DNA of 32,000 bases from Pyrodictium delaneyi (GCF_001412615.1 NZ_CP013011.1:240001-272000); one strand, 5' to 3'. Positions 1-31,415 are shown, counted from the stretch's first letter. The notes: generated from the sequence alone by a model not told the origin. Translations and numbers: made by a program.

Positions 1-778
1 TAGCGGCTTCCGCGAGCGCGTAGTCACGTGCCCGCATAACCTCCTCGGGAGAGAGTGTACCTGCAGCAACAAGAGCTACCATGACGTATATAGCTGTCAC
101 GACCAGTACAGCGGCGAAGAACGCTCTAGGCAGGACACGTGGATCCTCGACATCAGCGGCAGCGTTAGCTATGAGTTCGAACCCCTCGTACGCTAAGAAT
201 ATTATCATACCGCCTGCTACTATGTTGACTAAGCTGGGCCACTGGGAGGGGCTAAACCTACCCCATTCTACAAACCCGAGTCCAGCGCCGGCAACTACGA
301 CTAGTATAGCAAGCTTGAAGAATACGAGAGCATCTTCAACTCTTCCAGTTACTACAGCGCCGAGCGCGTTCAGAAACGTGAATATAGCTATAGCGAGGGC
401 GATAAACACGTGCCTAAGGAGGACAGCTTCGCCAAACAGGCTTGCCGCGTAACTCCCAAAGGCGTACGCGTAGAGCGCAATCATCACTATGTAGCTCGTA
501 AGCAACATAATATTGAGCCCGCCGGCAAGAATGCCGCGGCCAAAAGCCCTCACAATATACTCTATCGTCCCGCCTTCGCTCGGATAGCGGATGGAAAGCT
601 TCGCGTAAGAATACGACGTAGCCAGAGCCACTAAGCCTGCGAGGAGAAACGCTACGGGTGCAGCAGTACCAGCAAGCTGGAGACTAAGCCCCAGAACGGC
701 GAAAATACCGCCACCTATCATTCCGCCAACTCCTATGCTGAATGCCTCTATGAAGCCTATCTTCCTCCTGTCTGGCAC
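1..778 (-). CDS. APC-superfamily amino acid/polyamine permease (N-terminal ~259 codons; 3' end lies beyond the window start)
   Basis: Absent from the ORF track because it runs off the edge. My minus-strand translation from GTG at 778 reads VPDRRKIGFIEAFSIGVGGMIGGGIFAVLGLSLQLAGTAAPVAFLLAGLVALATSYSYAKLS...GGMIIFLAYEGFELIANAAADVEDPR. The Gly-rich helix-1 motif and the FLAYEGFE block are typical of APC transporters. An in-frame TAG lies upstream and AGGAGG sits ~9 nt before the GTG. Confidence 0.75.
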   Translation of the reverse strand, partial: MPDRRKIGFIEAFSIGVGGMIGGGIFAVLGLSLQLAGTAAPVAFLLAGLVALATSYSYAKLSIRYPSEGGTIEYIVRAFGRGILAGGLNIMLLTSYIVMIALYAYAFGSYAASLFGEAVLLRHVFIALAIAIFTFLNALGAVVTGRVEDALVFFKLAILVVVAGAGLGFVEWGRFSPSQWPSLVNIVAGGMIIFLAYEGFELIANAAADVEDPRVLPRAFFAAVLVVTAIYVMVALVAAGTLSPEEVMRARDYALAEAA

Positions 779-907
779 GAATGGATGCCTCCTTTGTTGC
801 CTCTAATTTTGTACCTCAAAATTGTTTTCTTTCATTATTATTTAGCTGCTTATTGATTTTAGGCTAGAATTGAAAATTTCTATTCACGTGTTGTATAACA
901 CACTAAG

Positions 908-1996
908 TTATTCACCGATAATTCTATCTACTATAGCTTTCACACCAGTCCTTAAAGGATCCAATGCGGGCACCATATAAGTCTCACTATATTCTCTTTC
1001 GATTCTCTTAGCCTCGTTTATCGTATACATGCTAGTATTCAGCGTTATCCCCGCCAGCACCGCGTTAGGGTAGGGGTTCAGCGCTGTCAAGTAGGTTAGC
1101 TCTTCGCCGGGCTCTGGGTTACGTAGGGGCTTCCATGCGTGGCTGAATGCTGCCCGCCAGCGGCGGCCAGGCACATGCGCCACGACTATGTGTGTGGGAG
1201 AGGCGCCACGCAGTATGCCCAGAGACACGTGGCCGTAAGCTTCATGAGTTATCGCCGCCTGGCCCTCGACCACAGCCACCTCGCAGCCCTGCTCGTAGGC
1301 CTCGACTATCACCTGCTCGAGCGCTCCGGCTACGAAGTCGCTCGGCACAGCGTCCACGACTAAGCCACGTGCGCCGAGGAGCAACATCGTCTGCCCAGTG
1401 CCGATCATACAAGCTTTTACGCTGCGGCGCTCGAGTTCTTTGTAGATAGTATAGGTGGCGATATTCTTCCCCGCTTCACAGTCTGTCCCGGCTATAAGGA
1501 CGCGCTTCATCCTGGTGCCGAGTACACGTCCATCCCAGACGCGGAAGTAACGGGGATCAGGCTTACGTACATCGACTATCCTGGCACCACCCTTCTCGGC
1601 GGCAGCCCGTAGCTCGGGGTCATCGGATAGGAAGGTGTGGAGCCCGCTGTAGACGTCGAGACCCATCTCAAGCGCGTCGCGGATGTCCCGCTTCCACTCC
1701 TCTGGCAGCCGGCCACCTACCGGAGCAGCTCCAAGAATCAAGGCCTCAGCGCCTTTCTCGACCGCCTCCCTAAGCCCCTGCACTATGGGGATGCCCTTCC
1801 GGCCCAGGCCAATGAATTCGCCAGCATCACGACCGGCGTTAAACGGATCTATAACTGCGACGAGGTCCCATAGGAGCCCGCCGTCAAATATTACGAGATC
1901 GTGCCCTGTCTTACCTTCCTCCCGGCCATAGGCTCCAGGAGCATATATAGCTGCCCTTCTCCGGCCCTCATGGTACACCATAGGCACAGCTACCAC
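908..1996 (-). CDS. DUF1611-family protein (DgcN-like, P-loop-like C-terminal domain)
   Basis: 362-aa ORF. 'AAIYAPGAYGREEGKTGHDLV..VAVIDPFNAGRDAGEF' and 'LIAGTDCEAGKNIATYTIYKEL' match my recollection of DUF1611 proteins. The family call is from recall, not a search. Confidence 0.55.
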   Translation of the reverse strand: MVAVPMVYHEGRRRAAIYAPGAYGREEGKTGHDLVIFDGGLLWDLVAVIDPFNAGRDAGEFIGLGRKGIPIVQGLREAVEKGAEALILGAAPVGGRLPEEWKRDIRDALEMGLDVYSGLHTFLSDDPELRAAAEKGGARIVDVRKPDPRYFRVWDGRVLGTRMKRVLIAGTDCEAGKNIATYTIYKELERRSVKACMIGTGQTMLLLGARGLVVDAVPSDFVAGALEQVIVEAYEQGCEVAVVEGQAAITHEAYGHVSLGILRGASPTHIVVAHVPGRRWRAAFSHAWKPLRNPEPGEELTYLTALNPYPNAVLAGITLNTSMYTINEAKRIEREYSETYMVPALDPLRTGVKAIVDRIIGE

Positions 1997-2236
1997 ACCC
2001 TACATAGCCTGGCTATAGAAGACTAGCTCGGAGACCCCCTAAGCCTGAGTCTCCTTGACCACCGCCTGGAATATTTGAACTCAGCGACCCCGGTGCACGT
2101 GCACACTAGCAGGTAGGAGGAGGGCTAACCTACCAGTACGATACGAAGCATACAGTCAACTACACTCGAGACTTGACTGAATGGTTGCAGGAAATAACAA
2201 CTATGAGGCCGGACCGATGACAAGCCAATAGAGTAC

Positions 2237-2241
2237 AAAAA
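2237..2241 (-). terminator. Oligo-T terminator candidate after cytochrome gene 2274-3746
   Basis: Minus-strand TTTTT lies ~33 nt downstream of the TAA stop in an AT-rich tail. Confidence 0.3.
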
Positions 2242-2273
2242 CTATAGCGATTATTAAATTAATTATGGCTACA

Positions 2274-3746
2274 TTAACGGCGTCTTACACCAGCCATAGC
2301 TACTGCTGCTAGTCCTAATACGCTGCCAACAATTATCATCAACCTCCATGGCTCGATGCCGCTGGTATTCTCGGCTGCACTACCTCCGATACTAAGGAGT
2401 AGACGCGTAACATTATGCGGGTCCTTGAGATTCTCGAACACGCTATGGGGAATAGGTATTAGTCCAAGCTCTCTAGCCTTTTCATAAGCACCTAAGGCTG
2501 ATGGATTATCAACAACAAAGTGGCAGTTGAGGCACATCAGGTACCGTATGGCTGTATTGTTAACCATATAGCTTGCATCACCCATACGGTCAGCATAAAT
2601 CATGACAAGATAACTAGTGTACCCTGCAGCAGTATTGTTAACCTCATTGACCGGGACATAGTAGGTACTAGAGTTCCCTGCATCATAGAACCATGTAAGC
2701 CGGCCACTCAGCAGCAGTGTTTCAACGCCTGGCTTAGCATAAGCACCCCGAGGCGCATAGACAAACATCCAGGATGCAGTCCCATTCCAACGTGAAATAT
2801 GGACAACTGGGTGGCATCGACACCCTATAGAAGCATGTACGCTATTGTTCACATAATTCAATATGTCAGGCGTAGTAGTGCCGTGGCATGATAAAGTGCT
2901 ATCAACGCCGCTTGCTCCAGAACAAGTCTGCCAAGAGTATTTGGAGTCGCGGATAGCATGGGGTAGTGTGCCGCTAAAGGTCGGGTCGCTATGACAGTCA
3001 AGGCAGTTATCTGGATGAATGAGTGGATAATTCTGCTGGATATAAGGTGCGGATAGCCCATCATAGTGATTCATATGGCAATACATACATAGGAGATATT
3101 CTCTGCCTGTTGGAACACCTTCTACATTATCTATATCAAAAGGATCCACAAATGCTATAGTATAGACACCTCTTGCCGCTACAAAGCTAGATGAAAAATC
3201 GTAGTGCGTATCAAGGGTAATCGACTTTGACGAGTTCTGGTCGACCTCAATATCGAACTTTTCAAACGACACTGGATATAGTATATTCAGGGCTTCTTTG
3301 GCTCCATCGACACGCGTGCTAACTATGTTATGGCAGCCGCCACTACGCCAAGAATCGTAGGAGCAGCCAGCAAATCCTGTGTAACCCGTAACTGATGTAT
3401 AGTAGTAGCCTCCTCCCCATCCAGTATGGCCTACATGGAGTGTTGCGTGGCATGTACATCCTATGTCTCTATGTGCTGTGGCACGCAGCGCCTCTATGGG
3501 TCCACTATTTATTTGATAGTGGCACTCTATGCAGCGGAATTCAGTGAATACGAAGTCGCCAGTTTCGCGCGAGGTAGTCTTATATTCTAGTCCGCCATGG
3601 CAGATGTGGCAGCCATACGGCCCGTGGTCAGCAGTAGGTGTATAGGCATGTGCAGTATCGCTGATAATTTTAGCAGCCACCAACACGCTAAATGCTATAA
3701 GTATGAGCGCGAATAGTCTGTTGAAGCTTATCCTGCATCTAAACAT
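2274..3746 (-). CDS. Secreted, C-terminally anchored multihaem cytochrome c (5 CxxCH + 2 CxCH + 2 long-spacer CXnCH); internally duplicated
   Basis: N-terminal signal sequence LFALILIAFSVLVAAKI. CxxCH sites are CHICH, CIECH, CMYCH, CLDCH and CLNCH. CxCH sites are IGCTCHATLH and IGCRCHPVVH. At least 8 N-x-S/T sequons. C-terminal hydrophobic helix plus RRR tail. GGTGG lies 10 nt upstream of the ATG, inside the upstream gene (19-nt overlap). Confidence 0.85.
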   Translation of the reverse strand: MFRCRISFNRLFALILIAFSVLVAAKIISDTAHAYTPTADHGPYGCHICHGGLEYKTTSRETGDFVFTEFRCIECHYQINSGPIEALRATAHRDIGCTCHATLHVGHTGWGGGYYYTSVTGYTGFAGCSYDSWRSGGCHNIVSTRVDGAKEALNILYPVSFEKFDIEVDQNSSKSITLDTHYDFSSSFVAARGVYTIAFVDPFDIDNVEGVPTGREYLLCMYCHMNHYDGLSAPYIQQNYPLIHPDNCLDCHSDPTFSGTLPHAIRDSKYSWQTCSGASGVDSTLSCHGTTTPDILNYVNNSVHASIGCRCHPVVHISRWNGTASWMFVYAPRGAYAKPGVETLLLSGRLTWFYDAGNSSTYYVPVNEVNNTAAGYTSYLVMIYADRMGDASYMVNNTAIRYLMCLNCHFVVDNPSALGAYEKARELGLIPIPHSVFENLKDPHNVTRLLLSIGGSAAENTSGIEPWRLMIIVGSVLGLAAVAMAGVRRR

Positions 3747-5266
3747 GATACCACCTGGAAACTCGTCACGATTATTTCTAAAGCGTTGTCACCATCAACA
3801 TCAGCTATACTGAGTGAGGGCATGGTAGCCTTGGCGTCATAATCCGTAGAAGTAAAAGGCGCATATTGTGCTACTGTATATTTATCCATTACATCATATA
3901 TTGTTATACTCGAACCTGTCTCTACATCAATTACATAGAGGCGGTAGACGGTAGTTAAAGTATAGTACGGCGTTATCAACACTACTTCGTAAGACGTGTC
4001 GTTATTTATGTCGGCAACAGATATTGTTGCGGCGTGAGATGTAAGAACTAGTGATTGCGCTGGCCAATAAGTATCGTACTGGTACTGCCATGATATCGAG
4101 AGGGAGCCATTACTGTAATCAAGTCTGTAAAGGTACCCGTCTATAGATGCTATGAATATTTCGGCCATCCCGTCGTTGTCTACGTCAGCTGCTGCGATGG
4201 ATGGCTGAGCATGCCATGCAAATGAACCAATATCGATAAATGTGATGATACTACCCTGGCGGGGATCTACAACTATGATACTGCCATTATATCCTACTCT
4301 TGATATTGTTGTTGTATCAATAAGCTCTATGCCAGCACTCACTATAATTTCGCGATAATTATCGCCATTAATGTCTGCAGATACAGGTGAATGTGTTATG
4401 AATAGACCCTTAAAGCCATTTCTCCACAAGTCGATGCTCTTAATTAGCTGGCCAGTTGCACCATCTATTACAAATATATATCCCCATAGATTTGTTACAG
4501 CTATGTCAAGAGTACCGTCGTTGTTAATGTCGTCAAGAAGTACTGGCGAGGCAGCAGATTGAAGACCACGACCAAAGGGTGTTTTCCAGAGAACTTCTCC
4601 GCTGACTGAGTTAATCCTATATGTGGCATTAGCAGTAGATACAACTATATCGATAACTCCGTCTCTATCGATGTCGTACACTAGTGGTGAGGATGCAATA
4701 TTGATTCCCACACGTTGCTCCCACTCAATCGTACCGCTTGCGAGATCCACACATCTTAGATAACCATCGCGGCACCCAATAATGGCTTCCAGAACATTGT
4801 CTCCGTCAACGTCTGCTAACGCTGGTGTTGAGTATAACGAAGCATTAACCGTTATGATTAACTTATATATTGTTGTAAAGTTATTTGTGTCGAGACCAGG
4901 TACATCAGATCCATAAAGTACTATGACTCTGCCTCCCGCGTCTACTGCAACAACCTCGGTAAAGCCATCATTGTCGACATCTGCTATTAAGGGATTCATG
5001 TTGAACCCCATTTGGCCTTCACGTGCTGGCATTATAAAGCTCCATACACGGTAAATTGTGTTGGAAAAATTACCAACTATAACATTACGAGGTATGAAGC
5101 TTGTATGGTATGGATCGTAGCCTAACTGGGTCCACCAGCCTGGAACAGACAACTGAGCCATAGATTTGCTAGTTTGAATGAGAGCAACTATCAGGATAAT
5201 AACTAATAATGCGGCTACCGCTATGCTTACCCTTCGGACAGTAGGGGTTAACGGCTTAGAGGGCAT
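3728..5266 (-). CDS. Secreted/anchored FG-GAP (integrin-alpha-like, Ca-binding) beta-propeller protein
   Basis: Signal anchor VSIAVAALLVIILIVALI. Eight spaced D-x-[DN]-x-D-[GNT] loops: DVDNDG, DVDGDN, DIDRDG, DINNDG, DINGDN, DVDNDG, DINNDT, DVDGDN. Each is followed by a hydrophobic beta-strand, as in FG-GAP/VCBS repeats. Confidence 0.8.
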   Translation of the reverse strand: MPSKPLTPTVRRVSIAVAALLVIILIVALIQTSKSMAQLSVPGWWTQLGYDPYHTSFIPRNVIVGNFSNTIYRVWSFIMPAREGQMGFNMNPLIADVDNDGFTEVVAVDAGGRVIVLYGSDVPGLDTNNFTTIYKLIITVNASLYSTPALADVDGDNVLEAIIGCRDGYLRCVDLASGTIEWEQRVGINIASSPLVYDIDRDGVIDIVVSTANATYRINSVSGEVLWKTPFGRGLQSAASPVLLDDINNDGTLDIAVTNLWGYIFVIDGATGQLIKSIDLWRNGFKGLFITHSPVSADINGDNYREIIVSAGIELIDTTTISRVGYNGSIIVVDPRQGSIITFIDIGSFAWHAQPSIAAADVDNDGMAEIFIASIDGYLYRLDYSNGSLSISWQYQYDTYWPAQSLVLTSHAATISVADINNDTSYEVVLITPYYTLTTVYRLYVIDVETGSSITIYDVMDKYTVAQYAPFTSTDYDAKATMPSLSIADVDGDNALEIIVTSFQVVSCLDAG

Positions 5267-5475: not shown

Positions 5476-6291
5476 TTACTTCCTGTGACACTCGGTGCAT
5501 CTATCGTCGCTTATGTCGATTTCTGGCAAATCCTTGTGGCAGTCTAGACAGGTTTTGCCTTCGAGGGCACCAACATAGCATTGTGGATCTAGTGGTACAT
5601 TCCATGTTGCGGTCTCTCCGTGACATCTATAACATTCTACGCTAGGCCCTGCAACTTCTTTGATTATATCCAGTACCTCTGGAGGTAAATTACGTGTAAC
5701 ATTCTGCTCCTCTAGAATAGTTATAGCAAAGGCATAACGGTGATAGCCTTTGTGTTTTTCAAGCATTCTCTCCAAGTCGTGGCATTGTGTACAGTCGCTA
5801 TTATGGGGCTTTAGTAGATGGCTTGAGTGACAAAATGTGCAGCTGTCAGCTATCTCTGCAACCTCTAAATGTATATTGTGGAGTGGTAATTTCGCTAAAT
5901 CTTCACGTCGGTGACATTGCAGACATTCATCTTCAATATGCAGCCGTGCCTCGAGTCTGAGTTCCTCGGGATCCGGTGCCTGGCCTGTTATTGTTAGGTA
6001 TAACTCGCGTATTGTACCCTGAGCTGTTTCTAGATCAAAGACATGGCATACATGACAGTTGAACTGTCTATGGGGAGATTCTTGGAATTCTTCATAGAAG
6101 GGCTTCATAACGTGACAGGTAGCACAGAAAACATTAGCAGCTGGACTGTGTTCAAAGAATGCCCATGCTGCATAACCTACCAGGATAATTAACACTACTA
6201 GCGCAACATTCACAGGTGTAGCTTTCTCCTTTAGATATGTTGTGATCTTTGAAATTGTTGAAGATATTTTAGCTTTGAGCCCGGTCAACAA
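5476..6291 (-). CDS. Membrane-anchored octahaem cytochrome c, NapC/NirT/NrfH-type N-terminus (paralog 1)
   Basis: One N-terminal TM helix (VNVALVVLIILVGYAAWAFF), then FCATCHVMKPFYEEFQESPHRQFNCHVCHV, the NapC/NirT signature C-x-x-CH-x-M...Y-x-E...S-x-H...CxxCH. Eight CxxCH sites in 271 aa: CATCH, CHVCH, CLQCH, CTFCH, CTQCH, CYRCH, CLDCH, CTECH. TTG start; no in-frame ATG lies before the TM helix. Confidence 0.85.
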   Translation of the reverse strand: MLTGLKAKISSTISKITTYLKEKATPVNVALVVLIILVGYAAWAFFEHSPAANVFCATCHVMKPFYEEFQESPHRQFNCHVCHVFDLETAQGTIRELYLTITGQAPDPEELRLEARLHIEDECLQCHRREDLAKLPLHNIHLEVAEIADSCTFCHSSHLLKPHNSDCTQCHDLERMLEKHKGYHRYAFAITILEEQNVTRNLPPEVLDIIKEVAGPSVECYRCHGETATWNVPLDPQCYVGALEGKTCLDCHKDLPEIDISDDRCTECHRK

Positions 6292-6482: not shown

Positions 6483-8444
6483 TCAGATAATGCTGCTTAG
6501 GAGGCTACGTATCCTGCCGCCGAGATCGCGCACAGACTGGAGACTAGAGACAGCAAGTGCTGCAGCAATGAACGCAATAACTATGGCTGTTTGCTCCCAC
6601 GTTGAAAGACTACCGAGAAAGCCAGTGGTCTTCCCAGTACCGGAGCCTATAGGGCGAGGTATACGTATCTCCATTGACTCTAGGCTCAGTTTAGGACAAT
6701 CGGTGTGAAGCGAGACACCTAGCACATGTATATTGCTGCCTGGTTGCAGCCATAGCTGAAGTTGTTCAGGTTTAACGTAGACTCCATAGTCTCCTTCTAC
6801 TAATGCTATACGTGCGACTGGCGCCTCAACGAAGTAGCTATTAGCCTTGTCTCCACGCCCTACAAGGATAAATACATCACCAGCACAACCGGTATAGTTT
6901 CCAGTATTTACGCCACGGAAGACTATGAGGAGGCCCCGGCTGGTATCAATATTGTCTTGGTTGTTTAGGAAACCGTAAGCTATCAGTCTTGGTACGTCCT
7001 CCATGGTGAGACTACGCTTGAGTCTATTTACCTCGGAAAGAATGTTGTATTCCTCCCAGCTGCTCAGCTCAGCTGTATGATCATAGAGAACTTCCTCAAG
7101 TTTCTCGAGCCTCTTGGTGTAGTATGGCTCGCCTGGCGAGACCATAGCCTCGATATGATAACTATCCACTATGTATTTGAGGCCGGTCAATACTGGCAAG
7201 GTTAAATTAAACTTAGCAATACTCCCATCATCAAAAATAACGGCTACAGGCAAGATGCTTTGCGTTGTATTAACAGGTAGAATCGCAGCTATCTCTAGCT
7301 CAGCCGGACTAGTCTTGGAAATATTCCAGAATAGAGCGCCCTCAACGATGCCTGCCACTGGCCTTGCTGGTATCATGTCTGTAAATCTGACTACCCAGAC
7401 AGCTCGATTACCGTCAACGAGTTTTACGGTAGCATTGCTAAAGACTGCTTTTCTTGGCGGTAGTGTTAGTGCTATACGACCACCCAGGAGGCCAACAATA
7501 TTAACGCTCTTCTTCTCTTCAGTAGTGTTTACTGAGATTATAAGCTTGGTTATTAATGCTGGCTTCTTGGGTACGAGATTATGTAGTGCTATAGGCTTCT
7601 CGCTGTAGATGTAAACTGTCTCATTAAACATAGTATTATTGGTAGCTATACCCTCAAGGGTAATGGAGATATTGAAGGGTATCTTTGACTCCGATGTAAG
7701 GGCGACGGGATTTACATATAACCGGTAGGCTTCGAAGAGGCTTGGCTCGCCAACAATGTATACCTCGGCGAAGCGATAGCCTTTCATATTATTCAGACTG
7801 CATTTGACTAGCTTAATGTCAGTTAGTTTGCAATCGATTTTAGGAACATAGGCTAGATAGTTGGGGGATACGGTGAGCGGGAGCCCGTTATCACGGAATG
7901 CCCTGGCAAGATCTACTGCCGCGACAAGCAATGTATTGTTGCCTTTTTCGGCAAGCACTACGAGCTCTAACGTATTCACATTGTATATGTGAGGACCCTC
8001 TCCCCGACTATGTGGTAACAGTCGAGATAGACTAACACCACCGATAGGTCTCAGATAATATACGCCGCGCGAAACCTCTCCATCATCACTAACAATACTG
8101 TAGAAGAGAATCACATGTACAGCATTTAGCTCCCCTAGGAAACTTTTCAGCCGATTAGTCCTCATAGTTACTATTAGGCGTATATCCTCTGCCAATGAGA
8201 TATTTTCGTTTTTATATAAACCCTTGAAGCTAGCAGCTACTGAGCCGATAAACTTGCCATCGACATAGAAGCCAACAATTAGCTTCGAACCTCCCTGCTT
8301 TGCTATAATGGTTTTAGCAAGTGGTACACCAGCACTAGCTTCCCTTGAGCTATTTGCGGCAGCTAGGTGGGTAGAAGCAGAGATGAGCACCGATAATAGG
8401 AGTAGACTAGCTATACTAGCTAACTGGAGTGTCCGCGGGCTCAT
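6483..8444 (-). CDS. Large secreted surface (S-layer-like) glycoprotein candidate with C-terminal membrane anchor; no recognisable domain
   Basis: The ORF track extends to 8522, but that overlaps the upstream gene by 61 nt. The ATG at 8444 gives a clean signal peptide, MSPRTLQLASIASLLLLSVLISASTHLAAA. Many N-x-S/T sequons and no CxxCH. The C-terminus is ...TGFLGSLSTWEQTAIVIAFIAAALAVSSL plus a basic tail. Confidence 0.6.
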   Translation of the reverse strand: MSPRTLQLASIASLLLLSVLISASTHLAAANSSREASAGVPLAKTIIAKQGGSKLIVGFYVDGKFIGSVAASFKGLYKNENISLAEDIRLIVTMRTNRLKSFLGELNAVHVILFYSIVSDDGEVSRGVYYLRPIGGVSLSRLLPHSRGEGPHIYNVNTLELVVLAEKGNNTLLVAAVDLARAFRDNGLPLTVSPNYLAYVPKIDCKLTDIKLVKCSLNNMKGYRFAEVYIVGEPSLFEAYRLYVNPVALTSESKIPFNISITLEGIATNNTMFNETVYIYSEKPIALHNLVPKKPALITKLIISVNTTEEKKSVNIVGLLGGRIALTLPPRKAVFSNATVKLVDGNRAVWVVRFTDMIPARPVAGIVEGALFWNISKTSPAELEIAAILPVNTTQSILPVAVIFDDGSIAKFNLTLPVLTGLKYIVDSYHIEAMVSPGEPYYTKRLEKLEEVLYDHTAELSSWEEYNILSEVNRLKRSLTMEDVPRLIAYGFLNNQDNIDTSRGLLIVFRGVNTGNYTGCAGDVFILVGRGDKANSYFVEAPVARIALVEGDYGVYVKPEQLQLWLQPGSNIHVLGVSLHTDCPKLSLESMEIRIPRPIGSGTGKTTGFLGSLSTWEQTAIVIAFIAAALAVSSLQSVRDLGGRIRSLLSSII

Positions 8445-8461
8445 AATGGCATCAATCCCCG

Positions 8462-10357
8462 CTATCTCGGCTCTAGTGGATAGCTGTTCATATAGCTGAG
8501 CAACCGAGAGATTAGAGCCCAAGCGTATAAGTGTTCGGCCTCGTATATGAGTGTGTTAATACGTGCATTATTGTTCTTTAGTGCATAAAGTAAACGCTCT
8601 ACGTAGTAGTGTTGGACTATACCTGCCGGCTCACCGAGCCTTATAGAGGCAAGGAGTATGTATGGTAGTCGCTCGCTCCAGAGCTCCTCCACACCGGGAT
8701 GTAACGCGAAGAATGTAAGCGAGTACGCTAAACTCTTCACTGCATGATCTATTGCACTAGCAGGATTGCTCTCGAGCTGACGGGCAGCTATAGAAGCTTC
8801 ATATAGAGCAGCATTGGGTAAGTTAGAGCGTGCTTTTCCTGTCACAGATACTAGTAGAGCGTAGCGTGCATACTCTGCAGCTGTATCTACTATCTTCTCT
8901 GCAGCAATTTTCAAGTCCATAGTGCTTCTAGTAGTGTTGCTATCCGCGAGGCCGGAGTCTCTATAGACTTCACTGAGTACAACAAGTACTGCTATAGCCC
9001 GTGTGTAGTAGGATACTGCGCTACTATACTCGCGTATAGCAGCCTCGACGAGTTCAGACCTAGCACCAAATATGTCCAAAGCGTGCTCAATCTTTAGGGC
9101 TGAAGAGATCTTGCTATCACCACTAGCTATCAGCGAGGACGCTCTAGCGTATGCTGCCAGCATGCTACCACTAATGCGTGTCACGTCAACAGTATCTAAT
9201 AGTCTACGTGCCATGCTTCGTAGCATCTCTGCATAACCCTTGGTTATCTGGTAGCCGTTTTTGCCGTACACTAGGTAGACTTGGGATAGCGATGATAGTG
9301 CAGCTGCATAATAGTCTACTGCTACAAAACAGTAACCATTCCTCCTTGCATCTTCTGCAGCATCTATGTAGCCAAGTGCTTGAGCTAATTGCCTTACTAC
9401 TATGTCGCGTAGCTGGGGCCGGTCTATATACGATAGCAGGCTTCGTGCCTCAAGCTCGATTCGGGTAGAGAGCCTGGCAAGATACTCAAGATAATCACGT
9501 AGTATAGGGCACGCACTATCCCAGTAAAGACTCCAGAGGACGGTCCCGACATCGTTGTAGTCTAGACTCTGGTTAAAGAACTCTAGTATGCTGACAACCG
9601 GGATAGCGTTGCTAACCTTAACAGCTTCGGCGGCTACACCACAATCGCTAGACACGAAAGGTCCCATAATGTTGACCCGGCATACACGCGACAGTTCATA
9701 CTCTGAGCCACGGCCATATAGAAGCCTATAGCCAGCCTCCTGTGCACCTTCAGCCTTCACTTCTAGACCGCCTACAGCACCTACAAGCCCATCTAGTCCG
9801 AGCATACCAGTAGCTATGTATCCGTTGCCGACGGGCACTCCAAGGGCACGAAGGAAAGCCAGGTATATCTCAGGGCTAGCGCTGGGACCAGCAACAAGTG
9901 GCTTAGAGCCATTTACCGGCTCTATCCGGACATAGTAGTCAAAGGCCCAAGGACTGTGACCTATAGTTATAGCTGCAAGATAAGCGGCAAACTTTGTAGA
10001 CAACATGAATGATTCGTCGAAACCTACGCCAGTGGCGACAAGGGTTCCATTGCCAGGCTCGACTTGTACATAGACACGATAGAACTGAGGAACGTTATCG
10101 ACGTACCCTATCACGAGGGCTGATGAGGAGCCGTAGCTGGGTTCAAGCTTTGAGCCGGGTACGAACTCTATGGCTATTGATGATATATTTAGAGGTGTGG
10201 TATGCGCTATTGATGAATTTGAGGATCCACCTCCAAGGAGAGGTATTGTGGGCTCATATGCTAGGGCAAGACCCCCCATCACTAGAGCGACGGCTATAAT
10301 GCCGGCTAGGGCTACGAACCAGTCGCCTACAGCTGCTCCAGCTTCATGGGGGGTCAA
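8462..10357 (-). CDS. Membrane-anchored, ATPase-less Lon-type (S16) serine protease domain fused to a ~370-aa alpha-helical domain
   Basis: N-terminal TM helix. 'VEPGNGTLVATGVGFDESFMLSTKFAAYLA' resembles the Lon 'pGkGkl.lTG.lGdvMkES..aA' block. 'AGPSAS' (Lon DGPSAG, catalytic Ser) is followed 42 residues later by 'GGLEVK' (Lon GGLKEK, catalytic Lys). No Walker motifs. TTG start with GGTG 9-12 nt upstream, 15 nt after the stop of 10373-11077. Confidence 0.65.
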   Translation of the reverse strand: MTPHEAGAAVGDWFVALAGIIAVALVMGGLALAYEPTIPLLGGGSSNSSIAHTTPLNISSIAIEFVPGSKLEPSYGSSSALVIGYVDNVPQFYRVYVQVEPGNGTLVATGVGFDESFMLSTKFAAYLAAITIGHSPWAFDYYVRIEPVNGSKPLVAGPSASPEIYLAFLRALGVPVGNGYIATGMLGLDGLVGAVGGLEVKAEGAQEAGYRLLYGRGSEYELSRVCRVNIMGPFVSSDCGVAAEAVKVSNAIPVVSILEFFNQSLDYNDVGTVLWSLYWDSACPILRDYLEYLARLSTRIELEARSLLSYIDRPQLRDIVVRQLAQALGYIDAAEDARRNGYCFVAVDYYAAALSSLSQVYLVYGKNGYQITKGYAEMLRSMARRLLDTVDVTRISGSMLAAYARASSLIASGDSKISSALKIEHALDIFGARSELVEAAIREYSSAVSYYTRAIAVLVVLSEVYRDSGLADSNTTRSTMDLKIAAEKIVDTAAEYARYALLVSVTGKARSNLPNAALYEASIAARQLESNPASAIDHAVKSLAYSLTFFALHPGVEELWSERLPYILLASIRLGEPAGIVQHYYVERLLYALKNNNARINTLIYEAEHLYAWALISRLLSYMNSYPLEPR

Positions 10358-10372
10358 GGCTAGACACCGTGC

Positions 10373-11077
10373 TCAGCGCGAATGACATCGTAGACAATCA
10401 TCAACGTTAGTTACAGGCTTGAGTGAAGCATGGCAGTGGAAGCAGCCGAATCCTTCTACACTTGCACGAAACGCGCTTGCGGGTATTGGTATTTCCCATA
10501 GTGCTTGCTGTGAATGACACTGGCCACACACTATTACGCCGCGCCGGTACTGCTCAAGAGCATAACTGTGGAACCCGCCATGACTTGACCGGATATTCTG
10601 CATATTGTGGCAACTGAGACAATCGCTAGGTGTAGGCTTAACCTCGTGGCTAGAGTGGCAAATAGTACAACTCTTAGCTGTCGATATTACGCGGAAATGA
10701 ACAACGTGTATTGCTTGTTGCTGTAGTGTCACCGGGCTATGACAGCTTGTACACTCCTGCTCCATTCTCATCTTGCGTGCCTGGAGCTCATACATGTCGA
10801 CACGGATAAAACCCATCTCGGCAGCTATACCCCTAACATACATTGATAACGGTGGATCATGACATCTTGTGCATTTAAAGTTCTCGTGAGGAGTTCCCTG
10901 AAGTTGCTCGGCAACAGAATCCATTAGATGGCACGAGCGGCAGAACCCATTAACTATATTGGTATCGTTCCCACTCCACATAGCATATACACTCATGATT
11001 ACGACTGCAAACGTTATTGCAGATACTGCTATCATTCTTCTACCCTTTATAAGCTGTACTAGCCCAGACCCGTTCAT
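10373..11077 (-). CDS. Membrane-anchored octahaem cytochrome c, NapC/NirT/NrfH-type N-terminus (paralog 2)
   Basis: TM helix IAVSAITFAVVIMSVYAMW, then FCRSCHLMDSVAEQLQGTPHENFKCTRCH. Eight CxxCH sites in 234 aa: CRSCH, CTRCH, CTSCH, CTICH, CLSCH, CGQCH, CFHCH, CLRCH. ATG preceded by AAAGGTGA. Confidence 0.85.
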   Translation of the reverse strand: MNGSGLVQLIKGRRMIAVSAITFAVVIMSVYAMWSGNDTNIVNGFCRSCHLMDSVAEQLQGTPHENFKCTRCHDPPLSMYVRGIAAEMGFIRVDMYELQARKMRMEQECTSCHSPVTLQQQAIHVVHFRVISTAKSCTICHSSHEVKPTPSDCLSCHNMQNIRSSHGGFHSYALEQYRRGVIVCGQCHSQQALWEIPIPASAFRASVEGFGCFHCHASLKPVTNVDDCLRCHSR

Positions 11078-11664: not shown

Positions 11665-12591
11665 ATGAAGGTTCGCACCTCCCTAGTTGGGGCAATAACT
11701 CTCATAGCCATATTAGCTCTAGTAGCATCAGCGACGCCGGCTGCGGCTAGCGAAGCGCTACTCCGTGACCATCCAACAGTATGTTATGGCTGCCACTCAG
11801 CAAACATAACAGATACAACTGTAGGCCCACACGACGTGAAGGCAGCCGAGAATGCATGGTTCTACTGTCTAACGTGTCATTCTAGTGCAAATAACACTGG
11901 CCTCTGGAGCGGTTCAATATGGGGCACAAACTATGGCGAGCCGGCGCCGGCCGCTGGCGACTACGTACCAAATAGCGTACATGGACAGATAGGCTGTAAG
12001 TGCCATACAATAGTGCACGCAGGCTTCAACATAAACCCGACAGTCGGTGCTGGCGTGTGGATGTACTACTATCTACCAACAGTAAATGGAGGTGCAGCGG
12101 CACCGAATCCAAATGACCTGGTAAAGTACGTAACATTCTATAACGGTACTGGATTCTACACAAACGACACCAGCACTGCAACAGTTACCAGTACAACGCT
12201 ACAACTATACTACGACACGGGCACGAGTGCTGTACCAGTAGATCCGACGAATATGACTGACGCCAAAGTGTACGTGGGCTGGTTCTACATAAACGGTAGC
12301 GCGCCTAGCGGTGTCAGCGAGAGGTTCTACATATGTTTCAACTGTCACTTCCTAGTAGAGAGTCCAGCAGGCCTAGGCATGTATAAGATAGAGAACGGTA
12401 TAGTGAAGATAGGTATACCCGCCGAGGCACTGCAGCTCAATCCGCACGCGATAACTGAGGATGCCCTACAGCAGCTACTCTCCAGTGGTGAAGAGGGCTT
12501 CGCTATCGAAGGCTTCCCGGTAGCAGCTGCTGGCATAAACATACTGGCATCTCTGGTACTATTTGCGATCGTACTTTCCCGGAAGAAATAA
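11665..12591 (+). CDS. Secreted, C-terminally anchored cytochrome c (3 CxxCH + 1 CxCH); single-module paralog of 2274-3746
   Basis: The track ORF starts at 11578. The ATG at 11665 (GGGGGAT upstream) gives signal peptide MKVRTSLVGAITLIAILALVASATPAAA. Haem motifs are CYGCH, CLTCH and CFNCH, plus NSVHGQIGCKCHTIVH. The C-terminal block CFNCHFLVESPAGLGMY is homologous to CLNCHFVVDNPSALGAY of 2274-3746. The terminal hydrophobic helix ends in SRKK. Confidence 0.85.
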   Translation: MKVRTSLVGAITLIAILALVASATPAAASEALLRDHPTVCYGCHSANITDTTVGPHDVKAAENAWFYCLTCHSSANNTGLWSGSIWGTNYGEPAPAAGDYVPNSVHGQIGCKCHTIVHAGFNINPTVGAGVWMYYYLPTVNGGAAAPNPNDLVKYVTFYNGTGFYTNDTSTATVTSTTLQLYYDTGTSAVPVDPTNMTDAKVYVGWFYINGSAPSGVSERFYICFNCHFLVESPAGLGMYKIENGIVKIGIPAEALQLNPHAITEDALQQLLSSGEEGFAIEGFPVAAAGINILASLVLFAIVLSRKK

Positions 12592-12801: not shown

Positions 12802-14325
12802 GTGCTGCTGGTTGATGTAGGACTTATTGGGCTGTCTCTCGTAGCGCTGTACTATGTTCTAACCGGTAAGTGGGAGCCTGGATTTGCTTCTAGGTTCACG
12901 TTCATAGCTTTCGGGCTCCTTGCCCTTCTAGGGGAGTACTATGGTGACGGATATGCTGGCATTGTTGTGCCGGTAGCTCTAGCTCTATTGCTTATACATT
13001 TATATGGCTGGGATGTTGCGTTCTATGCGAGTACACTCTATGGTTACTCGTATGGATTAACGATGATCGGCAATAGCTCTGATTGGATGGGCTCGCTTGC
13101 CCTAGGCCTGGTATATTCGGGGTTCGTTGCACTATTTTCTGTGTCTATTCATGTGCCGGGATGTAGAGGCTCGGAGAAGCGCTGTATGTCTGCTATAGTG
13201 TATTCAGGTTTTACGCTTGCAGCCGCCTATGTACTGTATATATTCTCTGCTATAGCCTACATCTCTAGGGTTCCCGACCATCGTGTGCTGTATGGATTCC
13301 CTGTTACCGCTGCTGTATCGATTATCGAGCCTTATGCTGGTATCCTAGCGTCTCTCGTCTACGTAATAGTTGCTGGCATGTGGCTGGGGGTAACTGTGGG
13401 ACTAGCAGCGCTAATGACTGTAGGGTTAGTGCTACTGTTGTATGTAGCCCGTCACTCGCTACTAGGGGGTATTGGTGACGTCAAACCTAGGGTGGCTATT
13501 GCCGGGCTTATCTGGAGCCTCATATCGGTGTGGTTGATGGCGTCTCCTCCGGAGAAGCTAAAGATTGTGGGTATAGTGACCGGACTCGGCCTATATAACT
13601 TTAGTCCAGTAATATATTACTACGTCTTCGGCCGGCTAATACTCGCTCTTGGCGTCATCCTCGTGGAGTTCTTGCTGGTAGCAGTTATGTGGCCCTCTCT
13701 GGGGCAGTTGGGCTTTCTGGCTGCAGGCAGCCTTCTAGCAGCTATTGTTGTCCTTAAGAGGCTCGGCGTAGCTAGGATATTGCCCTATATCGTTGCGGGT
13801 CTTATCGTAGTTGGAGGCTATACTGCTTCGTTGCGCGGGGAAGTGAAGATTCATAGTGGCAGCTATAGTATAACCCCAGGAACTCAGATACAGCTGCATG
13901 GGGTCAATTGTACACTTGACCTCACGGATACGAGGTATAGCAATGGCTGGGCCGAAGCAGTTTACAGCCTCCAGGACTGTGATGGTGTTTTCTGGTTGAA
14001 GTTGAGTGACTTCGAGTGGACTAGTGAGCCAGCACTAGGCTACACCTTGGCTGGAAGCGGTTGCGTCTATGCTATCGACCCGGCGCCGTCGCCTACACAA
14101 AGGGCTGAGGTACAGTTATGGCTGCTTACTGGTACGGAGCCTCGGCTTGAGGATGCACCGGTCGAGCTTATGTATAGGGAGGTGTGTGGTGTAAACTGGG
14201 TAGTTGCTGCTACAGTCATTATACTAATGCTACCGGTCGCCCGACTAGTAGCGGTGCATGCAGAGCGCATTGAAGACCTAGTCCGTAGGATGGTGTGGCG
14301 GCTTGGCTCTGGTAGGCGGAAGTAG
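12802..14325 (+). CDS. Polytopic (~11 TM) membrane protein with Cys-containing C-terminal extracytoplasmic domain and final TM helix; unknown function
   Basis: 507-aa ORF that is almost entirely hydrophobic for ~340 aa. A ~110-aa soluble segment with 4 Cys follows, then a last helix (VVAATVIILMLPVARLV). GTG start with GGTG 8-11 nt upstream. Its 3' end overlaps the next cytochrome gene by 23 nt. Confidence 0.65.
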   Translation: MLLVDVGLIGLSLVALYYVLTGKWEPGFASRFTFIAFGLLALLGEYYGDGYAGIVVPVALALLLIHLYGWDVAFYASTLYGYSYGLTMIGNSSDWMGSLALGLVYSGFVALFSVSIHVPGCRGSEKRCMSAIVYSGFTLAAAYVLYIFSAIAYISRVPDHRVLYGFPVTAAVSIIEPYAGILASLVYVIVAGMWLGVTVGLAALMTVGLVLLLYVARHSLLGGIGDVKPRVAIAGLIWSLISVWLMASPPEKLKIVGIVTGLGLYNFSPVIYYYVFGRLILALGVILVEFLLVAVMWPSLGQLGFLAAGSLLAAIVVLKRLGVARILPYIVAGLIVVGGYTASLRGEVKIHSGSYSITPGTQIQLHGVNCTLDLTDTRYSNGWAEAVYSLQDCDGVFWLKLSDFEWTSEPALGYTLAGSGCVYAIDPAPSPTQRAEVQLWLLTGTEPRLEDAPVELMYREVCGVNWVVAATVIILMLPVARLVAVHAERIEDLVRRMVWRLGSGRRK

Positions 14326-14953
14326 AGAATGGACTAGACGGCAACGCCTAATGCTGCTAGCGTTCATAGTGCTAGCTCTAGTAGGCCTCGTCGAGGCATT
14401 CTATCTAGCTACACCGGAGACGCAACTAGCTGTCTGTAAGAGCTGCCACGCCGACGTTGCAGCGATCCTAGAGGCTGGCAGCCATAGGAGTGTAGCAGAG
14501 GAGCAAGGATGCCGCGTCTGTCACCAGGATGCTGAGCCGCTAACTATACCCGACATGCTATCCGGGAGCTTCCAGGTGAGGGTCTCTACTGGTAGCAGGC
14601 CATGCCTGGCATGCCACTCGGAGATCCCTCATAAGCCGGGACTCCATAGTAGTCATGCATTCGTGTCTCAGAACTTCGGCTGTACAGTCTGTCATGACCC
14701 CCACGATCCTGCGATAAGGAAGCCATGCCTGGGCTGCCACGAGCGCTCGACCATGCTTGAAGCGCACAACTTCATGCACCAGGGAGCTTCCCCCGACTGT
14801 ACTAGATGCCATTTCGGCCCCGGGAAGCCGTCTCCCTACCCCAATATTCCCGGTCATGAGCTCTCAGGTGATGTCAACTGCTTTAGCTGCCATGATGTGG
14901 CTGTAACACCGCCAGACATAGTCCGGGTCGACTGTGCCAACTGTCACCGCTAG
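14303..14953 (+). CDS. Membrane-anchored octahaem cytochrome c, NapC/NrfH-like (paralog 3)
   Basis: TM helix LMLLAFIVLALVGLVEAFYLA. Eight CxxCH sites in 216 aa: CKSCH, CRVCH, CLACH, CTVCH, CLGCH, CTRCH, CFSCH, CANCH. Motif order and spacing match paralogs 1 and 2. TTG start at 14303; the alternative ATG at 14351 would remove the basic N-terminus. Confidence 0.8.
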   Translation: MALVGGSREWTRRQRLMLLAFIVLALVGLVEAFYLATPETQLAVCKSCHADVAAILEAGSHRSVAEEQGCRVCHQDAEPLTIPDMLSGSFQVRVSTGSRPCLACHSEIPHKPGLHSSHAFVSQNFGCTVCHDPHDPAIRKPCLGCHERSTMLEAHNFMHQGASPDCTRCHFGPGKPSPYPNIPGHELSGDVNCFSCHDVAVTPPDIVRVDCANCHR

Positions 14954-14976: not shown

Positions 14977-15348
14977 TTAATTAATGCCGAGCATCTCTTC
15001 CACTATTGATAATGCTTCCTCCACGGTTGTTCCAGGCTTCACAATCACCACACGGAGTCCCTGGCTCTCCATGAACTCCTTCCCGCCGGGCCCGAACGCG
15101 GTGGCAACTAGATGAGTGCAATCACGGTTTAGCTCTAGTATGCGTCTCCGCTTTTCCCCGTGTCTATGGCCGCCATGATGACCGTGATGGTGGTGCTCGT
15201 GGCCGGCATATGGGTTCTCAACACGTCGAATAAGCCTCCATCCATCCTCTTCACGGACATAATGGAGGTAAAACCGTGCATCTCCGAAGTGCCCTATCTT
15301 AACATGCTGCCCATCATCCGTAGCTATAGCCACGCATACCTGCTTCAT
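14977..15348 (-). CDS. NifB/NifX-type (dinitrogenase FeMo-cofactor-binding fold) small protein with His-rich insertion
   Basis: MKQVCVAIATDDGQHVKIGHFGDARFYLHY... and ...CTHLVATAFGPGGKEFMESQGLRVV are typical of the Nitro_FeMo-Co (NifX/NifB C-terminal) family. The insertion is HEHHHHGHHGGHRHG. Confidence 0.65.
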   Translation of the reverse strand: MKQVCVAIATDDGQHVKIGHFGDARFYLHYVREEDGWRLIRRVENPYAGHEHHHHGHHGGHRHGEKRRRILELNRDCTHLVATAFGPGGKEFMESQGLRVVIVKPGTTVEEALSIVEEMLGIN

Positions 15349-29303: not shown

Positions 29304-31415
29304 GTGGGCTGTACGCCGGGGCCCACTGCATTGCCAGCGAGCATAAGGTTAGTAGCGGGTTATAAGCCGCCCGTGGGCGGCGGCCGTACACCAGAGTTTT
29401 GGAGCCGCGACCGCATAGCAGCGATAAGATATGCTGCAGAGCACGGTATGGAGAAGACTATCCTCAGCAAGCCAAAGGCTCGCGGGAGGCTTCTCGACCG
29501 CCTTGCTATACGCGACTTAGACCCCCGCGAGCTCCGGGAACTCGCTCAGAAGCTTGGCCCGGAGGGCATCGACCGGCTAGACGTTGACGCGGGCGTAGAC
29601 TTCGCGGACGTACATTTACGCGTCCCAGTCTACCTGGGCGACATGAGTTTCGGAGCGCTCTCCGGCCGCCCCAATATAGCGCTAGCGAGAGCCGCCGACA
29701 TAGCTGGCGCAGTAGTGGGTGTAGGCGAGGGCGGCCTCCACCCCGAGGTGGCACGGTGCAGGAACATCGTCATACAGTGGGCTAGCGGCCGCTTCGGGAT
29801 AGACAGGTACATGCTCCGTCGCGGCCTCGCAGTCAACATCAAGATAGGACAGGGCGCGAAGCCTGGCATAGGCGGGCACCTCCCAGCCCGTAAGGTCGTA
29901 GGCGAAATAGCTAAGCTGCGTAAGCTCCCACCAGGTAGTGAAGCCCTAAGCCCCGCACCCCACCACGATATCTACAGCATAGAAGACCTAGCACAAAGGG
30001 TGAAGATGCTCCGCGAGCTCACAGGCCGCCCAGTTCTCGTCAAGACTGCTGCTACTAACCAGGTCGGCTTTGTGACCCTTGGCACAGCACGCGCCACAGC
30101 CATGGGGATAATCATCGACGGTGCTGGCGCAGGCACCGGGGCTACACCGCGGATCGTCCGCGACCATGTGGGCATGCCCGTGGACTACGCTGTACCTGTC
30201 GCCGACCGGCTGCTCCGGGAGAACGGGCTCAGAGACGGCTTCCTAGTGATAGGCGGCGGCATGATATCCAGTGGTGAGGATATAGCCAAACTGATCCTGC
30301 TCGGCGCTAACATGGCTAACATAGCGACTGCGGCACTCATAGCTATGGGGTGCATCATGTGTCATATATGCAATACTGGCAACTGTCCTGCAGCGTTAAC
30401 GAACAGTATTGACAGTGCGTTCAAGATCGACATAGACTGGGCCGTTGCAAGGGTCGTGAACTGGCTACGCGCAGTCGAGAGAACACTGAAGCTGATAACC
30501 TACGCACTCGGCGAGGACAGCCTACAGAAGCTCGTAGGCCGCCGCGGCCTACTAGAGCTCTACAACGCCGACGAGTACGTGGCCAAGGTCGTCGGCGTAG
30601 AGCTGGCCGAGCCTGGGCAGATAGCCTGGTATGGTGACCCAGGCGAGGAGCCGCTGCCACGCGAGGTCTACATGGAGGCTAAGACCCCGGTTCTAGGCAT
30701 GGGCGGCTACGTGCCGGGCTACACGACGCCCGCCGAGAGGCCGCTAGACCTCCTCCGGGTAGAGGCGGCGCAGGTGACCCGGCCCAGTGTAGACCCGTAT
30801 CGCGAGGAGATAGACCTCACAGTAAGGCTCCCCGACGGCACGGTATACGAGGCGCCGATAGCGGTCCCATGCCTGGAGGAGCCCCTTGTGGAGGCCGCGG
30901 AGGGGCTCGGCTACCCGCTAGAGTGCGAGCTGATGGAGAGGCCGTACGCGATAGCTCTGCCGCCGGGCCTAGAGCCTCCACCCGGCACTACGTTGGTTAT
31001 AGTCGACGAGGAGCTACGGGGTCGCGGCGGCCGCTCCAAGCCATGGCTAGAGGAGTGGATAGTCTGGCTAGACGACGAAATGTGGAGCAGTGGGATACGG
31101 AGCGACGTAGCCCTCGTGGCGGCAGGCGACCTCCGGAGCGCTGCCGACGTCTACAAACTGCTAGCCCTAGGCGCTGACCTGGTCACGCTCCGCCGGCCTC
31201 TACGCTGGCTGAGCAAGAAGATAGCCGGGTGGCCCGCTGAGAGGAGGAGAGAAGCGTACGAGAACACACTGATAGCAGTCACCTGGGAGCTGAAACTCCT
31301 GATGGGTGCCGGCGGTTTGACTAGCTACCAGAGCCTCCAGGGTAACCGGTGGCTCCTCCGCAGCCTCGACGGCGAGGTCGCCCAGCGGCTCCGCGTATCA
31401 GTGGCAGGCGAGTAG
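29304..31415 (+). CDS. Archaeal-type glutamate synthase FMN-binding (GltB domain 2-like) subunit with ~240-aa C-terminal extension
   Basis: 'GDMSFGALSGRPNIALARAA', 'NIKIGQGAKPGIGGHLPARKV', 'SPAPHHDIYSIEDL', 'IIIDGAGAGTGATP', 'GGGMISSGEDIAKLILLGANMANIATAAL' and Cys cluster 'CIMCHICNTGNCP'. GTG start. Confidence 0.85.
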   Translation: MGCTPGPTALPASIRLVAGYKPPVGGGRTPEFWSRDRIAAIRYAAEHGMEKTILSKPKARGRLLDRLAIRDLDPRELRELAQKLGPEGIDRLDVDAGVDFADVHLRVPVYLGDMSFGALSGRPNIALARAADIAGAVVGVGEGGLHPEVARCRNIVIQWASGRFGIDRYMLRRGLAVNIKIGQGAKPGIGGHLPARKVVGEIAKLRKLPPGSEALSPAPHHDIYSIEDLAQRVKMLRELTGRPVLVKTAATNQVGFVTLGTARATAMGIIIDGAGAGTGATPRIVRDHVGMPVDYAVPVADRLLRENGLRDGFLVIGGGMISSGEDIAKLILLGANMANIATAALIAMGCIMCHICNTGNCPAALTNSIDSAFKIDIDWAVARVVNWLRAVERTLKLITYALGEDSLQKLVGRRGLLELYNADEYVAKVVGVELAEPGQIAWYGDPGEEPLPREVYMEAKTPVLGMGGYVPGYTTPAERPLDLLRVEAAQVTRPSVDPYREEIDLTVRLPDGTVYEAPIAVPCLEEPLVEAAEGLGYPLECELMERPYAIALPPGLEPPPGTTLVIVDEELRGRGGRSKPWLEEWIVWLDDEMWSSGIRSDVALVAAGDLRSAADVYKLLALGADLVTLRRPLRWLSKKIAGWPAERRREAYENTLIAVTWELKLLMGAGGLTSYQSLQGNRWLLRSLDGEVAQRLRVSVAGE

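Follow-up and report, generated by a model that had tools for sequence, protein, structure and literature searches.

Introduction

The closest described relative of the proteins considered here is PcECN (PDB 8E5F, UniProt A3MW92), the extracellular cytochrome nanowire (ECN) of the archaeon Pyrobaculum calidifontis, seen as a filament, whose tetrahaem subunit holds four bis-His c-type haems (10.1101/2023.06.12.544705; PMC11936953; PMC12203936), with four haem-to-haem steps per subunit according to a supplementary table. Similar in design are AvECN from Archaeoglobus veneficus (F2KMU8, PDB 8E5G) and the Geobacter proteins OmcS, OmcE and OmcZ, in which tetra- to octahaem subunits with stacked bis-His c-type haems form an extracellular wire. 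The present study deals with a stretch of 32,000 nucleotides of the Pyrodictium delaneyi genome (NZ_CP013011.1:240001-272000), called the window throughout, which encodes two PcECN-like cytochromes of 490 and 308 amino acids (aa). Both carry the motif CxCH, in which a single residue separates two cysteines (Cys) followed by a histidine (His). In our view, it is very probable that the third haem of every four-haem module in PcECN-type archaeal extracellular cytochromes is covalently attached at this motif.

Departures from the canonical CxxCH motif are known from other secreted multihaem proteins that follow the same Cys…Cys-His logic, among them CX3CH and CX4CH in cytochromes c3, CX15CH in MccA, CXXCK in NrfA and the single-Cys motif (A/F)XXCH. 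MccA and NrfA have dedicated lyases, whereas the window has no evident gene for such an enzyme. Moreover, the spacer of CxCH departs from the canonical one by being shorter, not longer. An alternation between spacer lengths, resembling the one between CxCH and CxxCH described below, has been reported for MtrA homologues, which carry either Cx2CH or Cx3CH (bioRxiv 10.1101/2025.05.29.656830).

CxCH as a natural haem motif was not found in the searchable literature, a search that did not extend to the original 8E5F structure paper. Within the searchable haem literature, CXCH is mentioned only as one regular expression used by the FEET pipeline, given with no supporting data (PMC11218250). In a proteomic study of P. 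delaneyi, cytochromes were counted by CxxCH, no conductive appendage was evident and the present locus was not discussed (PMC8105010). An initial inspection of the window, the sequence-only reading, had pointed out the motif and proposed a new geometry of haem attachment, a haem site with one thioether, or a Cys/His metal site. Here, we weigh these possibilities against the family to which the two proteins belong.

Results

Two cytochromes of the window carry CxCH motifs

The two cytochrome genes and their motifs are located as follows:

2274-3746, minus strand: gene of the 490-aa tandem double-module PcECN-like cytochrome (BLASTP, alignment with 19 relatives, Cys census)
3435-3473, minus strand: HRDIGCTCHATLH, extended signature (translation)
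3447-3458, minus strand: CTCH, residues 97-100, site 3 of the N module (translation, Cys census)
3330-3365, minus strand: CSYDSWRSGGCH, C-x9-CH, extra site 4 of the N module (Cys census)
2883-2924, minus strand: CSGASGVDSTLSCH, C-x11-CH, site 2 of the C module (BLASTP, alignment of relatives, Cys census)
2799-2846, minus strand: NSVHASIGCRCHPVVH, extended signature (translation)
2811-2822, minus strand: CRCH, residues 309-312, site 3 of the C module (translation, Cys census)
11665-12591, plus strand: gene of the 308-aa PcECN-type cytochrome subunit (phmmer to 8e5f_A, family profile, Cys census)
11782-11796, plus strand: CYGCH, canonical, haem 1 (invariant columns)
11866-11880, plus strand: CLTCH, canonical (invariant columns)
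11971-12018, plus strand: NSVHGQIGCKCHTIVH, extended signature including CKCH (translation)
11995-12006, plus strand: CKCH (C111-K-C113-H114), proposed attachment site of haem 3 (invariant in alignment A2, aligned with CACH of 8e5f)
12334-12348, plus strand: CFNCH, canonical (invariant columns)

Translation reproduced exactly the three CxCH peptides located by the sequence-only reading, which had not given the strand of the 490-aa open reading frame (ORF). A census of all six frames of the window, comprising 89 stop-free stretches of at least 80 aa (15,470 residues), yielded three CxCH motifs versus 33 CxxCH motifs, and all three were the ones already noted. The 12-mer AATAGCGTACAT shared by two of the signatures was likewise recovered, at 11971-11982 on the plus strand and at 2835-2846 on the minus strand. 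It codes for N-S-V-H only and the DNA identity drops right after it. Gene conversion was rejected as its origin because the identity covers four codons and no longer stretch of DNA. The 12-mer was treated as a codon coincidence and given no weight.

All eight Cys of the 308-aa protein reside in its four motifs CYGCH, CLTCH, CKCH and CFNCH. As read from its sequence, the protein starts with a signal peptide, as expected for export to the site of cytochrome c maturation, and ends with a Pro, a transmembrane helix and an RKK tail.

Both proteins belong to the PcECN family

With phmmer, the PcECN chain 8e5f_A was the best and sole significant PDB match for both window proteins (E 9.6e-10 and 1.7e-5 for the 308-aa and the 490-aa protein, respectively). 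In the phmmer alignment, QIGCKCHTIVHAGF of the window pairs with SYGCACHAVAHVGY of 8e5f_A. A word-indexed protein search returned just three and two relatives, and it was a full HMMER search that revealed the family: profile A1, built from the window proteins and a few close relatives and searched against 1.84 billion representative proteins, retrieved 55 family representatives. A profile of 28 family members matched 8e5f_A from end to end with an E-value of 2e-54 (profile positions 1-266, chain residues 1-384). One of these representatives, the Pyrobaculum protein P0042, is a PcECN orthologue, which was found by the window-seeded profile at E 3.4e-12 and matches 8e5f_A at E 1e-163.

The sequence of 8e5f_A, recovered via the P0042 alignment, contains three CxxCH motifs (CISCH, CINCH and CFNCH) and one CACH, the latter in the same alignment column as CKCH of the window. 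The 308-aa protein and PcECN share the site order CxxCH, CxxCH, CxCH, CxxCH. They also have in common the signature GC-x-CH-xxx-HVG, conserved extra His residues and a C-terminal CFNCHF…KIGIP…PH block. The resemblance includes the termini, as the signal peptide and the hydrophobic C-terminal anchor with its basic tail align with those of 8e5f_A. Differences are evident as well. Identity to PcECN amounts to only about 25-30%, and the four extra Cys of PcECN as well as an insertion of about 80 residues in its beta-rich middle are missing from the 308-aa protein. In addition, the 490-aa protein combines two modules in tandem and has Cx9CH and Cx11CH sites that PcECN lacks. No sequence similarity of the family to AvECN (8E5G) or the Omc chains was detected, and these chains were absent from the family-profile search of the PDB even at E<=10.

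Pfam and NCBIfam hold no model for either window cytochrome; only generic cytochrome matches below threshold were obtained. By homology, the two proteins join the PcECN family as new members that had no annotation. Since the motif is already present in the deposited structure 8E5F, released in 2023, it is a property of a known family and not a discovery of this window. The suggestion of a haem site with a one-residue spacer is supported by the homology to PcECN, and by the interchange of CxCH and CxxCH shown below, although 'new' is not an entirely fitting word for it. The idea that 11665-12591 codes for a tetrahaem protein gains support from the solved tetrahaem homologue with CxCH at the same column, and with CxCH read as the attachment site of haem 3 the 308-aa protein is best read as a tetrahaem subunit.

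At the C-terminus, all family members have a Pro that hardly varies, then a hydrophobic helix and an RRR or RKK tail, an arrangement that resembles a sorting signal. The 8e5f model covers only 293 of the 385 chain residues, so the PcECN termini are probably removed or disordered.

The Cys and His residues of the third site are invariant across the family

Conservation across relatives, named by the sequence-only reading as a check on the motif, was complete: the two Cys and the His of site 3 are invariant in all 29 single-module members, PcECN included, and in alignment A2 (28 sequences). They are as invariant as the corresponding residues of the three canonical sites, and the only invariant columns of A2 are the four Cys-Cys-His triplets and H261. 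The flanking His residues H106 and H118, also said to be conserved, are present in at least 90% of the A2 sequences. The 308-aa protein indeed has five His outside its motifs (H36, H56, H106, H118 and H261) that could serve as distal ligands, and these are kept in 24-28 of the 29 members; where H36 seems to be lost, the alignment has in most cases shifted and a His lies close by.

This degree of conservation bears on the reading of CxCH as a dead remnant, according to which a CxxCH motif lost one residue and holds no haem in the window proteins. Multihaem cytochromes commonly lose haem-binding motifs through point mutations (bioRxiv 10.1101/2025.05.29.656830). However, invariance of both Cys and the His together with conserved flanking His at 20-30% identity is incompatible with a dead site, and an empty site amid a chain of four haems would break the wire. 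We regard this explanation as barely credible, the least probable of those considered.

The 55 family representatives provided 48 C-type modules in which site 3 was compared in MAFFT alignments. CxCH occupies the site in 38 modules and CxxCH in the other 10, in the same column and with the same flanks, the sequence being SVHxxIGC-x-CHxVxHVG in the former and SVHxxxGC-xx-CHxVxHVG in the latter. In none of the 48 modules were the Cys, Cys and His of the site lost. On a rough neighbour-joining tree, parsimony required at least about eight changes of spacer length. Such repeated flips between CxCH and CxxCH with retention of the flanking ligand residues indicate that both forms do the same job. 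With its Cys, Cys and His invariant, the motif is far beyond chance.

The same alignment speaks to the proposal of a non-haem Cys/His site, Rieske-like or binding Cu, Zn or Fe, according to which the number of haems would equal the number of CxxCH motifs. CxCH matches the strictly conserved box II of Rieske proteins, C-P-C-H (PMC4122944), and the flanking His are conserved. Yet a canonical CxxCH stands at the same column in the 10 modules mentioned above, and four haems are reported for the solved homologue although its sequence contains just three CxxCH motifs. Furthermore, there is neither a Rieske box I (C-x-H, some 15-20 residues upstream of box II) nor a spare Cys, as the disulfide of Rieske proteins would require. 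In the 308-aa protein, there is no Cys between C71 and C111 and none outside the four motifs. Neither a Rieske family nor any other metal-site family was found in the Pfam and NCBIfam scans. A Rieske-like reading is ruled out by the missing box I and the lack of spare Cys; with the fold and the context also being different, the resemblance to box II (C-P-C-H-G-S) is a coincidence of pattern only. The proposal as a whole is not supported, and we consider a metal site of any kind highly improbable. Most single-module members have exactly eight Cys with the spacings x2, x2, x1 and x2. If the family is tetrahaem, these four pairs leave no Cys for another role.

The 490-aa protein is a double module with expanded sites

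The 490-aa protein consists of an N module (approximately residues 1-234) and a C module (approximately residues 235-490), and it ends with a transmembrane segment and an RRR tail. In BLASTP comparisons, residues 244-465 align with the entire 308-aa protein (E 8e-23) and residues 5-106 with the N-terminal third of the latter. The 18 Cys of the mature protein all belong to C…CH pairs. There are nine such pairs, in the order CHICH, CIECH, CTCH, C-x9-CH, CMYCH, CLDCH, C-x11-CH, CRCH and CLNCH.

Alignment with double-module relatives revealed different behaviour of the individual sites. The column of CTCH in the N module holds a canonical CxxCH in 14 of 19 relatives, whereas at the CRCH column of the C module 18 of 19 double-module proteins have CxCH, the exception being P0043 with CRYCH. 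Where the window protein has C-x9-CH, relatives show Cx3-5CH, Cx11CH or a single Cys. The columns of C-x11-CH read C-G-R/S/V-CH in relatives, and the window protein carries a nine-residue insertion between the two Cys; its close homologue P0005 has C-x8-CH at this position. Given this variation at the Cx9CH and Cx11CH sites, Cys-Cys spacing in PcECN-type proteins is unusually plastic (x1, x2, x3-5 and x8-11). Some double-module relatives (P0047, P0048 and P0049) contain two further CxCH motifs in the N module, for instance YCYCHSYF and NCACHVVIHI, so the family does not confine the motif to a single position.

The extra site 4 of the N module is informative for another explanation, namely that CxCH binds haem 3 by one thioether only, like the euglenozoan mitochondrial (A/F)xxCH motif, and that the other Cys is free or serves another purpose, for example in redox tuning, as a persulfide or in a cross-link. 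Sterically, a single spacer residue leaves less room than any established motif with two thioethers, and cryo-electron microscopy maps of filaments rarely resolve thioethers unambiguously. However, some relatives lose the second Cys of N-module site 4, which demonstrates that such a loss is tolerated where a Cys is dispensable, whereas at site 3 both Cys are invariant in 29 of 29 and in 28 of 28 sequences. Moreover, site 3 flips repeatedly to the two-Cys form CxxCH and never to a form with one Cys. Attachment by one thioether thus seems unlikely, although it is the strongest of the alternatives to attachment of haem 3 through both Cys.

The cytochrome genes reside in a conserved cluster

The following genes lie around the two cytochrome genes:

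3728-5266, minus strand: FG-GAP beta-propeller protein of 512 aa (Pfam FG-GAP_3, E 3.5e-23)
5476-6291, minus strand: membrane-anchored NrfH/NapC-like cytochrome with eight CxxCH motifs (Pfam and NCBIfam scans)
6483-8522, minus strand: secreted or anchored protein of 679 aa, conserved in the cluster (homologue at the same place in L005, E 6e-62)
8462-10357, minus strand: secreted protein of 631 aa with a weak Lon (S16) protease-like region at the C-terminus (NCBIfam LonB, E 1e-3)
10373-11077, minus strand: second octahaem cytochrome of the NrfH-like kind, membrane-anchored and divergent from the 308-aa gene (family scans, locus comparison)
12802-14325, plus strand: polytopic membrane protein of 507 aa with a soluble C-terminal domain, directly downstream of the 308-aa gene
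14303-14953, plus strand: third membrane-anchored octahaem cytochrome (family scans)

The cluster occurs in the same gene order on the metagenomic contigs L005 and L007. The FG-GAP gene shares the 19 nucleotides at its 3′ end with the start of the 490-aa cytochrome gene and the pair is kept in L007, which suggests translational coupling and a shared function. The cytochromes encoded at 5476-6291, 10373-11077 and 14303-14953 are paralogous NrfH/NapC-like proteins with eight CxxCH motifs each, and their genes flank the ECN-like genes. In every related locus compared, among them L001, L002, L004 and L005, a gene for an NrfH-like octahaem cytochrome adjoins the ECN gene as well. The cytochrome at 5476-6291 is likely the electron input on the quinol side.

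The 679-aa protein had no match in Pfam or NCBIfam. The Lon-like region of the 631-aa protein is centred around GPSAS…GGLEVK. This protein has a homologue in L005 (E 2e-65), and its counterpart in L001 (6892-8808, minus strand) exceeds the Pfam Lon_C cut-off; it could be a candidate processing protease for the C-terminal anchors of the subunits. The 507-aa membrane protein, which also had no family match in Pfam or NCBIfam, is likewise encoded right after the ECN gene in L005 and L006 and is a candidate anchor or assembly platform. It was considered as a dedicated haem lyase and rejected, since neither Cytochrom_C_asm nor any other family matched.

No cytochrome c maturation genes were found in the 32-kb window. 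In L001, a metagenome-assembled genome of the Geothermarchaeota, ccmB, ccmA, a ccmE-like ORF, ccmC and ccmF lie directly beside the homologous ECN cluster (359-4979, minus strand); the ccmE-like ORF codes for 128 aa with the sequence …KCPSKE…. This neighbourhood links the CxCH protein to an archaeal variant of the System I (Ccm) maturation pathway.

Other features of the window are a 123-aa ORF just after the cytochrome cluster (14977-15348, minus strand), whose His-rich run HEHHHHGHHGGHRHGEKRRR may bind metal, and a 703-aa ORF (29304-31415, plus strand) with one CIMCH within the Cys-rich stretch CIMCHICNTGNC. The CIMCH may be an iron-sulfur or chance motif rather than a haem site. The window also carries a four-gene pyruvate:ferredoxin oxidoreductase, and a glutamate-synthase-like protein with a single CxxCH is encoded downstream. 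Both agree with the gene numbering of the P. delaneyi study (PMC8105010).

Discussion

If CxCH is the attachment site of haem 3, both of its Cys would bind the haem via the vinyl groups and the His of the motif (H114 in the 308-aa protein) would be the proximal iron ligand. The flanking His, H106, H118 and others, might provide the distal ligands of haem 3 or of neighbouring haems. With all haems ligated by two His, a continuous electron wire would result. The two tandem modules of the 490-aa protein would accordingly bind up to nine haems, and CxCH would be the site of two of these.

Several points weigh against this assignment. That the fourth haem of PcECN sits on C-A-C-H is deduced by counting motifs versus haems, and the four extra Cys of PcECN (at about positions 62, 69, 133 and 163), which both window proteins and most other family members lack, are conceivably involved. 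The close relatives in the databases are annotated as hypothetical proteins of Pyrodictium, Pyrobaculum and Desulfurococcales, and so are the window proteins themselves. The E. coli Ccm system tolerates spacers of two to six residues, as seen by mutagenesis of bacterial cytochromes, and we know of no demonstration that Ccm handles a spacer of one. Furthermore, the AF2 model of the 308-aa protein, calculated without haems, is mediocre (mean predicted local distance difference test score, pLDDT, 63.8). In a Foldseek search of the PDB with this model, 8e5f was the sole significant match (E 6.7e-4, probability 0.98), at a low template modelling score of 0.24-0.25 over 176 columns.

A spacer of one residue would need an extended rather than a helical backbone. 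In the AF2 model, the canonical motifs reside in short helical turns, while C111-H114 is non-helical and leads into a strand formed by residues 115-122 (pLDDT of this block 77-84). As weak evidence, this conformation matches what the short spacer would need.

Maturation presumably occurs by an archaeal System I variant that lacks CcmH, as archaeal Ccm systems generally do (PMC4429474). The missing CcmH may explain why Cys-Cys spacing is so free in the family. Going one step further, we find it somewhat more probable than the opposite that CxCH is a site of two thioethers with a one-residue spacer which is ancestral and dominant in this archaeal family and interconverts with CxxCH, and that spacing in System I without CcmH is looser than in bacteria.

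PcECN has been seen as a filament, and we infer that the window proteins may also polymerise into haem filaments. In the most likely mode of operation, the NrfH-like membrane cytochromes would take electrons from the quinol pool and hand them to the PcECN-like subunits, which would carry them off the cell via stacked bis-His haems, the CxCH haem being the third link in each unit of four. As the motif itself was already deposited with 8E5F, what may be new are its conservation throughout the family, the repeated interchange of CxCH and CxxCH, the double module that carries CxCH twice, and the sites expanded to Cx9CH and Cx11CH.

A locus of the PcECN type would provide Pyrodictium, a hyperthermophilic iron reducer, with a candidate nanowire system comprising a tetrahaem subunit, a double module with nine sites, three membrane-anchored octahaem cytochromes, a Lon-like protease and an FG-GAP propeller. 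From an evolutionary standpoint, the family-wide data support a haem c motif that standard lists do not include. If the assignment is true, pipelines restricted to CxxCH would systematically miss haems in archaeal extracellular cytochromes. For instance, they would find three instead of four in the 308-aa protein and five instead of nine in the 490-aa protein. The textbook rule of CxxCH would then reflect bacterial systems, and the spacing accepted by the archaeal System I without CcmH would be much looser.

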